A stretch of 5,156 nt of DNA from a virus (Duplodnaviria > Heunggongvirae > Uroviricota > Caudoviricetes): the IMG/VR virus record IMGVR_UViG_2740892258_000011; one strand, 5' to 3'. The notes under the pieces are model-generated. The model worked only from the letters and a program-made list of their open reading frames with translations. It had not been told where the DNA came from and made no database searches. Below, in pieces: positions 1-5,024 of the stretch; position 1 is the first letter of the stretch; each line of letters opens with the position of its first letter. The translations under genes and the position numbers were made by a program.

Positions 1-631
<631 letters not shown>

Positions 632-870
632 TTACCGCCGCGCCATTTCGCGGATTGCCACAACCGGAAGCGCACGGTCGACGAAAATTTAACGACAGGC
701 TATCTATGAACCAGCTACCTCGCCGTGCGCTTTCGCGTTATGGTCTGACTTTTCAGGGAAATATCCTTTCAGTAAACTGTCAGTGCCGGATGCTCACCCG
801 TGTCCGGCGCACGCACTCCACCTCACCCGTGGAGAACTCCTTAATTACCAACCTTAGCTTCGTTGGTTAG

Positions 871-1092
871 CTATTCACGCGGGTATGTAATCATTCTGGC
901 AATGCTTAATGCCGCTGCTTTTTCCAGATTGGTGATATCCTGCTCCAGAGCGGACAGATTTTCAGCCTGCTTAGCCCTGGCTTCATTGGCCCATTTCAAA
1001 TCCTGCGCTGCATTAATTTTCTGGCGCATCCACTCATAAAGTTCATCATTGGTATAGTCTGGCGCGATGATGACGGGTTCTCGTTTCTGCAT
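871..1092 (-). CDS. YdfC-like small prophage protein (73 aa), function unknown
   Basis: ORF-track protein MQKREPVIIAPDYTNDELYEWMRQKINAAQDLKWANEARAKQ..., with GAGGAA RBS 6-8 nt upstream of the ATG at 1090-1092. Size and position (third gene of leftward operon) resemble ydfC of the Qin dicB operon; homology is recalled, not searched. Confidence 0.6.
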   Translation of the reverse strand: MQKREPVIIAPDYTNDELYEWMRQKINAAQDLKWANEARAKQAENLSALEQDITNLEKAAALSIARMITYPRE

Positions 1093-1699: not shown

Positions 1700-2338
1700 T
1701 TAAATATTTTGTTGAATTTTAAAGCATACGCCCAATATGCAAGATAGATCATCCAGCATAATTGAAGGGTAGCGAGGATTCGTGGGGACTAAAAGAATAT
1801 CCGGCCCTTCTATCTCCAGTTTACGAATGACAGGTGTTGTGGTCCCTTTGGGTAAGGCAAGGACAATATTTCCTGGTTGTACGGTTCGATCGGGATCAAC
1901 AAAAACTGTTGAACCATTTGGGATGGAAACTCCCCCACCAGATGTTGACATACTGTCACTCTCTAGAACAACTGCAAAGGTATTGGCCGGGATTTCTCCG
2001 ACAAGCTGCACACAAGAGGTTATTGAGGAATTTTTCATATAATCACTCCAGCTTGCTGCCTGCTGAAGTGATAGTAGCGGAACCGTTTTTATCGGCGGTA
2101 AAGATAGATCAAGCGAATCACCTGTATTTAACTCTCCTCCATTAAGAAGCCAATTTTCGTTTACTTTCAATATTTTTGCCAGTGAACTTATGTAACGCGA
2201 GGACGGCGCTCCTCCACCGTTCATCCATTGACTTACGGAGCCTTTTGATGCGCCAGTGGCATTGACAAGGTCTTTGCCTTTCAGGTTTAGCGCATGCATA
2301 CGTTGGGTTATGCGTTCAGATATTGTTTGCTTGTTCAT
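1700..2338 (-). CDS. CI-like prophage repressor: N-terminal HTH plus C-terminal LexA/S24-type autopeptidase domain (212 aa)
   Basis: C-terminal half aligns by eye to lambda CI: SDSM vs GNSM (catalytic Ser), VDPDRTVQPGN vs VDPEQAVEPGD, RKL vs KKL (catalytic Lys), NPRYP vs NPQYP. N-terminus has an HTH-like segment (GASKGSVSQWMNG). Divergent from the cro-like gene. Confidence 0.85.
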   Translation of the reverse strand: MNKQTISERITQRMHALNLKGKDLVNATGASKGSVSQWMNGGGAPSSRYISSLAKILKVNENWLLNGGELNTGDSLDLSLPPIKTVPLLSLQQAASWSDYMKNSSITSCVQLVGEIPANTFAVVLESDSMSTSGGGVSIPNGSTVFVDPDRTVQPGNIVLALPKGTTTPVIRKLEIEGPDILLVPTNPRYPSIMLDDLSCILGVCFKIQQNI

Positions 2339-4901: not shown

Positions 4902-4932
4902 GGCTGGTGGGTGTTAGGGGCACCCACCAGCC
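4902..4932. repeat. Perfect 12-bp inverted repeat with 7-nt spacer (strong hairpin or palindromic protein-binding site)
   Basis: GGCTGGTGGGTG (4902-4913), ttagggg, CACCCACCAGCC (4921-4932); arms are exact reverse complements. No T-run follows, so not a canonical intrinsic terminator. Confidence 0.6.
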
Positions 4933-5024
4933 ATCTGCTCATGCGTCCGGATCACAAGCAAACCTCAGGCCCACTGCTTTGCGCAAAAGCAGAATGAGCC
5001 TATCAGAGACAGGCTTAATGATCC

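Follow-up and report, generated by a model that had tools for sequence, protein, structure and literature searches.

The DNA analyzed here, a stretch of 5,156 nucleotides (nt) from a Caudoviricetes record (IMGVR_UViG_2740892258_000011) that is called the window below, carries two adjacent stem-loops, hairpin B and hairpin A, beside a ydfC homolog in a Qin-like lambdoid prophage (Table 1). On balance, and with some reserve, we favor the reading that these tandem hairpins are the first ~50 nt of a plus-strand module, a promoter plus 5' leader serving an accessory-gene slot, of which the window would hold an orphaned copy. In lambdoid prophages of the Qin, Rac, and Stx types, the module would run antisense to the early-left (PL/dicBF) operon. 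Its complete order would be a weak sigma-70 promoter (-10 TAAACT), hairpin B, hairpin A, a CUCC tract, a strong Shine-Dalgarno (SD) sequence with an ATG, and a small accessory ('moron') open reading frame (ORF).

Table 1. Positions of the hairpins and of the features around them in the window (hairpins B and A are the first and the second hairpin, respectively, of an earlier note on this DNA).
Feature	Position	Strand	Remarks
Non-coding conserved spacer of the DicF cassette (ydfC-dicF part, dicBF long untranslated region)	620-784	-	Truncated at 620
Putative -35-like hexamer TTTTCA	750-755	+	17 nt upstream of the -10-like hexamer
-10-like hexamer TAAACT	773-778	+	Separated by 6 nt from the first base of hairpin B
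Hairpin B	785-808	+	Stem GCCGGA/TCCGGC (785-790/803-808), loop of 12 nt
Direct repeat CTCACCCGTG, copy 1	793-802	.	Repeat finder
Hairpin A	816-834	+	Stem CTCCAC/GTGGAG (816-821/829-834), loop CTCACCC
Direct repeat CTCACCCGTG, copy 2	822-831	.	Repeat finder
CTCCTTA, anti-SD-like tract	about 837-843	+	Complement is TAAGGAG on the minus strand
ACCAACC, last bases common to gene-bearing relatives	847-853	.	Homology class ending at 853
ydfC homolog	871-1092	-	phrog_1744; abuts the leader
Weak terminator-like hairpin with T-run inside ydfC	897-924	+ (antisense)	1 site, 0.7 expected by chance

Anatomy, folding, and conservation of the hairpins

The anatomy and conservation of the element, like its context and the coding status of the neighboring ORFs, are matters of direct observation. 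Both stems and the 10-bp direct repeat, which the earlier note had described from the letters alone, proved exact on comparison with the sequence and with a repeat finder. With up to one mismatch allowed, the 10-mer CTCACCCGTG occurred twice in the window against 0.19 occurrences expected, a count reached in 4 of 200 shuffled sequences. On plus-strand RNA hairpin B is extended to 11 bp by three G-U pairs (783-793/800-810) and is closed by the hexaloop UCACCC. The plus-strand fold of positions 770-850 had an energy of -29.4 kcal/mol (z = -4.48), and none of 200 shuffles was equally stable; RNA of the minus strand over the same interval (-23.9 kcal/mol, z = -0.07) behaved like shuffled sequence. 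Among 42 distinct homologous variants the mean fold z was -3.2 for the plus strand versus -1.4 for the minus strand, and the plus-strand fold was the more significant in 40 of them. The hairpins are genuine and above chance, and they are present chiefly on the plus strand, antisense to the dicBF operon. The earlier note had read them on the leftward transcript, with GGGUGAG in the loops; that reading is the weaker one, as fold significance, the -10-like element, and the SD sequence, ATG, and ORF of relatives all favor the plus strand.

Neither hairpin was flagged as an intrinsic terminator on either strand in a terminator scan, and no U-tract is found in the tails (AACUCCUUAA on the plus strand, ACUGACAGUUUAC on the minus strand); a terminator was rejected as a candidate on both counts. 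When the whole window and six related loci were scanned with Rfam, nothing matched at the hairpins, and DicF, STnc100, C4, and isrK were matched elsewhere only. An antiterminator RNA of the HK022 put type was also considered and rejected, as no second copy of the motif was found in the window, of which the beginning of the PR operon is a part; this search was made with the motif and not with the sequences of put.

Homologs of positions 620-870 were detected in 4,322 of 5,426 Escherichia coli genomes, often in multiple copies, and in 45 phage records; the conservation across related prophages that the earlier note had proposed to look for is borne out by the thousands of E. coli genomes that carry the element. 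The hairpin module occupies 1-9 places per genome (median 2), in a prophage-type context at every locus examined. In an 18-mer scan of one genome per species, true copies were confined to Escherichia and Shigella and the remaining matches were due to chance; a first gapped scan of viral sequences likewise returned mostly chance matches. About 240 copies were gathered by four differently anchored scans. The core of hairpin B (CCGGA/TCCGG) was essentially invariant among them, including those from scans anchored outside the core. Classified by their end point on the window (870, 853, 831, 753, and others), the homologs fall into several classes and therefore form a mosaic of modules. The hairpin sequence was not found in the literature searched.

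The stem of hairpin A showed no variation in 35 distinct Qin-type copies, and its loop had 4 extra alleles over 7 sites. Loops were the most variable positions overall. In minus-strand notation, loop A occurs as GGGTGAG, GGGTCAG, GGGTGAA, GGATGAG, GGGTTAG, and GGGTAAA, and the alleles of loop B are GGGTGAGCA, GGGTGAACA, GGGTGCGCA (K-12), and GGGGGAACA, with GGATAAGAA in a large subfamily, T3. In K-12-type Qin, loop B reads GGGTGCG and the closing pair is broken. In T3, hairpin A gives way to an unrelated hairpin, GACC(A)ACACG-CTGTCA-CGTGTGGTC. The statement that both hairpins display the same loop thus holds within a single subfamily and not elsewhere (K-12 and T3 differ), and an RNA-binding-protein site defined by the shared loop is unsupported because the two loops are not kept identical among copies. 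What is conserved is the presence of two stem-loops at this place, not the loop sequence.

Two kinds of rearrangement were observed in these hairpins. The replacement hairpin of T3, at a site corresponding to 816-834 of the window, is present in both orientations (loop TGACAG or CTGTCA; for example, locus L192 versus L196), which indicates that the palindromic unit was inverted in situ. A 29-bp deletion exactly between the 10-bp repeats has left the 5' arm of hairpin B joined with the 3' arm of hairpin A in loci L243 and L247, one of them a gene-bearing copy and the other a Qin-type copy.

A plus-strand leader and its accessory-gene slot

Transcription is predicted to start at about 784-785, at the foot of hairpin B. 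The arrangement TTTTCA-17-TAAACT matches the consensus at 8 of 12 positions (null probability of at least 8 at a fixed position, ~0.045); the context of locus L169, TTGAGA-17-GATAAT, matches at 10 of 12 (null, ~0.001). With A2 and T6 as the criterion for a -10-like hexamer (TAAACT, GATAAT, TAACAT, TAAAAT), six of nine upstream context classes have such a hexamer whose end is 5-6 nt from the start of hairpin B, against a null of 5.4%; the nine classes are not all independent, and a conservative count is four of six. TAAACT belongs to the DicF-cassette context and the window, GATAAT, TAACAT, and TAAAAT to three unrelated contexts, and TAAGCT to one more. Nearly all copies have G or A at the predicted start, where hairpin B begins.

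Downstream of the hairpins, a plus-strand ORF of at least 30 amino acids with an SD sequence starts 57-68 nt past hairpin B in 51 of 123 homologous copies, and the order in those 51 copies is a strong SD sequence, an ATG, and a small ORF. At this place CAGGAGGGTGAAATG or TAAGGAGGGTGAAATG is found in the T1 subfamily and CAATGGAGGATAAAATG in T3. The slot encodes 33 distinct proteins of 32-101 amino acids, and the number of unrelated families among them is at least 16. For most of the proteins a full-length match was obtained, each to a different PHROG family of unknown function, and Pfam searches with ten slot proteins gave a single marginal GhoS-like (antitoxin endoribonuclease) match and no other. 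The slot ORFs are under purifying selection, with a ratio of nonsynonymous to synonymous polymorphism (pN/pS) of 0.20 over seven families. An RBS-anchored scan (RBS, ribosome-binding site) that was blind to the hairpins recovered hairpin B and a second hairpin in 119 of 119 T3 leaders. Occupied slots, on the plus strand just past the hairpins, were seen at loci L005, L007, L169, L241, and L242 and at ~50 others.

Plus-strand genes were called independently by annotators in phage Evi, in PPompW prophages, in Rac-like prophages, and in the Stx-like podophage phi367. Each annotated gene is the lone one of opposite orientation within a minus-strand early-left operon, and its 3' end overlaps the preceding minus-strand gene. 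The order in Evi and PPompW is repressor, further genes, ydfC, a gene of 135 amino acids, the plus-strand ORF, the hairpin module, DicF, and then dicB or kil. Qin and the window have the same order minus the 135-amino-acid gene and the plus-strand ORF, with ydfC abutting the leader at ~853. We assign the hairpins to the plus-strand gene module, not to DicF, because in phi367, L169, L219, and L302 hairpins B and A are present without the DicF cassette yet still stand ahead of a plus-strand ORF.

The copy in the window is most likely an orphaned leader, because the plus-strand ORF and its SD sequence are absent, homology to gene-bearing relatives ends at 853, and ydfC follows. Past 853 the relatives go on with CTCAGGAGGGTGAAATG and the ORF, and the window enters the 3' end of ydfC; no plus-strand ORF with an SD sequence was found after 834 in the window. 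Both hairpins and the promoter-like elements, however, are complete in this copy. The word 'remnant' used in the earlier note is apt for a leader without its downstream gene, but not for a remnant of DicF.

Promoter activity, the transcription start, and every functional step of the following scheme are inferred. Stem-loops at the 5' terminus stabilize mRNA against 5'-end-dependent decay, and stabilizers of this type are reportedly found in the 5' untranslated region (UTR) of ompA. The module resembles them in that a stable hairpin is predicted right at its 5' end, with a second hairpin and, after that, the RBS behind it; it differs in that its transcription start is only a predicted one. If transcription begins at or beside the base of hairpin B, the mRNA would open with a stable stem-loop, and the 5'-terminal stem-loop or stem-loops would stabilize it. 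The anti-SD tract and the C-rich loops, together with the stem-loops, may modulate ribosome access. In relatives the SD sequence has its complement in the CUCC tract, over 7 bp (phi367) or 8 bp (CUCCAUU-type, T3), and the loops are complementary to the spacer between the SD sequence and the AUG (UCACCC:GGGUGA in T1, UUAUCC:GGAUAA in T3); a lock on the RBS through loop or CUCC pairing is suggested as a possibility. The stem-loops would also be the natural sites of kissing contacts by which transcription from PL, once induced, silences or re-programs the accessory gene, in the way that P22 sas acts on sieB; loop-loop contacts would be expected there because the leader has its exact complement in the PL transcript. 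At most, the window copy would yield a short RNA that is antisense to ydfC at its 3' end. It is speculative that this would be a plus-strand RNA of ~140 nt, from ~785 to the terminator-like site inside ydfC. The hypothetical RNA folds with z = -2.8, and no antisense start at ydfC was found in the literature searched.

Several known systems are similar in part. Prophage 'moron' cassettes are said to consist of a promoter, a gene, and a terminator inserted between phage genes. The slot is like them in that an independently promoted accessory gene sits in an operon of opposite orientation and varies among otherwise similar phages; it is unlike them in that many unrelated genes follow one conserved leader, which is unusual, and in that no clear terminator was identified for the slot genes. 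A further likeness is to sieB of P22, lambda, and Rac. In relatives the slot gene is embedded opposite to the PL operon in the same position and orientation as sieB, which lies between N and orf28/ral in lambda and beside kilR and the KilS small RNA (sRNA) in Rac of K-12. In the window that gene is missing. sieB has its own promoter, and the -10 hexamer of P22 PsieB is TAAACT, as here, with the annotated start at the seventh nt downstream; the module has promoter-like sequences at a fixed distance, of weak consensus in the window (8/12). In both systems the PL transcript runs antisense to the leader, and in P22 a 105-nt antisense RNA, sas, derived from the PL transcript, controls sieB translation (PMC12197685, PMC7067206). 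The slot ORFs differ from sieB in being small, hypervariable, and unrelated to SieB, and the 5' UTR of the module (~90-100 nt with two stem-loops) is longer than the 31 nt of P22. A comparison of the module with the regions upstream of sieB in P22, lambda, and Rac of K-12 gave no sequence similarity beyond the hexamer.

A number of observations weigh against a plus-strand leader. The promoter has only a weak match to the consensus (8/12) and went unflagged in a standard scan, and no candidate of at least 9/12 was found in the window. The loop-RBS and anti-SD-SD pairings were no better than in composition-preserving shuffles (p of 0.1-0.27; anti-SD p about 0.1), and the loop-RBS pairing showed no within-family covariation. 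The Qin-type orphan is the commonest form and its stems are nonetheless invariant, which could mean a function independent of the plus-strand ORF, for example on the minus-strand transcript. Covariation of the stems, a check proposed in the earlier note, gave a partial answer: in 21 distinct T3 leaders 95.8% of cells were paired and one compensatory pair (C-G to U-A, with a U-G intermediate) was found, but this single double-sided change was equaled in 48 of 500 shuffles and the test was underpowered. One-sided substitutions favor either strand in roughly equal numbers. Finally, conservation may in part reflect recent common ancestry, all copies being in freely recombining prophages of Escherichia and Shigella.

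To our knowledge the conserved leader is undescribed in the searchable literature; the kind to which it would belong, the independently promoted accessory gene embedded antisense in an operon, as in sieB, is already known. The leader stands in most sequenced E. coli genomes, ahead of a hypervariable slot for small proteins and beside the division inhibitors DicF, DicB, and Kil, and its sequence offers a handle for locating slot genes and testing their switching upon prophage induction. Lysogen-expressed slots of this kind tend to hold superinfection-exclusion and anti-defense genes. A broader version appears unlikely when taken whole: the leader would be a portable one by which lambdoid prophages of Escherichia express a hypervariable slot in lysogeny, with an RBS lock by the loop or CUCC tract or with PL kissing, and the Qin-type ~140-nt anti-ydfC RNA would in addition help to silence the toxic dicBF operon. 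If that were true, the slot proteins might be exclusion or anti-defense proteins, induction would switch the slot off or re-program it, the one-off mechanism of P22 sieB/sas would be generalized to at least 16 gene families, and the Qin-type copies (window, K-12) would have a still-intact promoter and leader. The window's own copy is ordinary, and the family appears moderately interesting.

Alternative explanations

The most serious alternative, which we regard as possible though clearly less probable than a plus-strand leader, places the function of the hairpins on the minus strand, within the dicBF/PL transcript. They could be 3' stabilizers of the ydfC message, determinants for RNase E or RNase III processing that yields DicF, or the body of a sas-like antisense RNA, this last version being compatible with, and complementary to, a plus-strand leader. 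In Qin-, Rac-, and other prophages the module does accompany the DicF cassette, and its stems are invariant in Qin-type copies that lack the plus-strand ORF; P22 sas, moreover, is a functional PL-derived antisense RNA at this map position (PMC12197685). However, the minus-strand fold is hardly distinguishable from shuffled sequence in the window and weaker than that of the plus strand over the variants (z of -0.07 and -1.4, as above), the G-U pairs that extend hairpin B turn into C-A mismatches on that strand, and in the four contexts where hairpins B and A occur without the DicF cassette they are always by a plus-strand ORF. In one DicF-cassette variant, T2, half of hairpin A is destroyed. 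A role in DicF maturation is moot for the present copy because DicF and dicB are deleted here.

A DNA-level feature without RNA function, such as a linker at recombination joints, sites for a repeat-binding protein, or a palindrome of the repetitive extragenic palindromic (REP) type, is improbable. Several homology classes end in or beside the hairpins (831, 853), the 10-bp repeats have caused deletions, and hairpin A of T3 is found inverted. A linker role accounts for these mosaic break points, but not for the fixed geometry of promoter, hairpins, and RBS, that is, for a -10-like box upstream and an SD sequence and ATG downstream. Sequence-specific DNA sites are at odds with the observation that the repeat, which forms the loops, is the most variable part. 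As to REP elements, hairpin B is a GC-rich imperfect palindrome that opens with GCCGGATGC, like the REP consensus; it differs in being shorter (24-28 nt), in having another loop and tail, and in its number, 1-9 copies per genome in prophage-type contexts (median 2) against the hundreds expected of REPs, and a REP element was rejected on copy number.

It is very unlikely that the region encodes a tiny peptide in the minus-strand frame VIKEFSTGEVECVRRTRVSIRH*, even though this frame is preceded by an SD-like TAAGGAG (about 838-844), remains open to a TGA at ~782, has an ATG in the same frame in the T3 subfamily, and has a counterpart in the 37-amino-acid ORF that PHANOTATE calls through the hairpins of phi367. 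The pN/pS was 1.14 in the open minus-strand frame and 0.43-1.49 over all six frames, and stop-related changes were present among 27 variants (4 of them in the open frame). The candidate GTG start is lost in the common GGGTCAG variant, and the inverted hairpin of T3 shifts the frame. A small protein-coding gene was rejected for lack of purifying selection in the six frames together with the stop-related changes. The earlier note had allowed that the region might be a fragment of a known protein-coding gene; by the pN/pS test the hairpin region is non-coding.

The earlier note had also pointed to the place of the DicF sRNA in Qin. Its location was right in that the prophage is Qin-like and the hairpins lie downstream of the ydfC homolog, within the spacer between ydfC and DicF; DicF itself is deleted here. 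The idea that the element is DicF, a diverged DicF paralog, or a decayed remnant of DicF has nothing but map position in its favor, between ydfC and the expected site of dicB, and is refuted. Rfam detected no DicF in the window at E <= 1, the search recovering DicF with 76.7 bits in the K-12-like locus L001 as a positive control (Rfam gathering score, 48 bits). There, DicF occupies a separate site, downstream of the hairpins, within a ydfC-dicB spacer that is 567 bp long in K-12-like Qin; in intact relatives it begins ~85 nt beyond position 620, where the prophage homology of the window ends, and related loci carry both the hairpins and DicF. Neither an RF00039 match nor an RNA of 52-53 nt with a Rho-independent terminator between ydfC and dicB was found. 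The module shares with DicF the prophage family and the intergenic region, the dicBF long untranslated region, and is linked to it in most relatives, but it is a separate element, which on the operon strand lies upstream of DicF by ~190 nt. For the window, the outcome serves chiefly as a correction: the hairpins are no sRNA of the DicF type, and DicF was lost along with part of cls.

Two further observations concern the neighborhood of DicF. STnc100, a Salmonella sRNA family of Rfam, matches the spacer between DicF and dicB or kil below the gathering score (31-38 bits; L001 2657-2866, L003, L005, and L006), which suggests that STnc100 represents the homologous 5' leader of the division-inhibitor gene. 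In Rac of E. coli K-12 (L238 1906-2003), RefSeq annotates the sRNA 'KilS' (b4833) at the position equivalent to DicF, upstream of kilR and next to sieB on the opposite strand. The KilS sequence includes a DicF-like terminator hairpin, and no paper on KilS was found in the literature searched.

Layout of the window and the deletion junction

Positions 1-340 of the window hold a yciU-like gene and positions 365-619 the C-terminal portion only of cls (cardiolipin synthase), both on the minus strand. The prophage part is of the lambdoid Qin/dicBF type; it begins at 620 and is fused at 619/620 to the truncated cls. Its genes here are ydfC, ydfB, a ydfA-like gene, a cI/DicA-like repressor gene (1700-2338, minus strand), a cro-like gene, RusA, and Q. 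Every related locus aligns with the window from 620 onward only, and the junction between cls and the prophage was found in 0 of the 5,426 complete E. coli genomes searched; this genome therefore carries a deletion. What was lost by it is DicF, dicB, the remaining left arm of the prophage, and most of cls. Published descriptions of the region speak merely of a long untranslated region that includes dicF (PMC5069750; PMC9438474).

In the part of the spacer proximal to DicF, an inverted repeat of 13 nt (665-677/723-735; CGGAAGCGCACGG and CCGTGCGCTTTCG, 92% complementary, spacing 45 nt) was found. It is kept in all DicF cassettes, with some changes that are G-U-compatible on the minus strand, and may be part of the structure of the DicF precursor. 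At the other end of the window (4902-4972, minus strand), Rfam gave a sub-threshold match to the Pseudomonas sRNA P26 (21.4 bits, E = 0.41), which probably reflects no more than a GC-rich hairpin of terminator-like form, located downstream of the Q-like gene.

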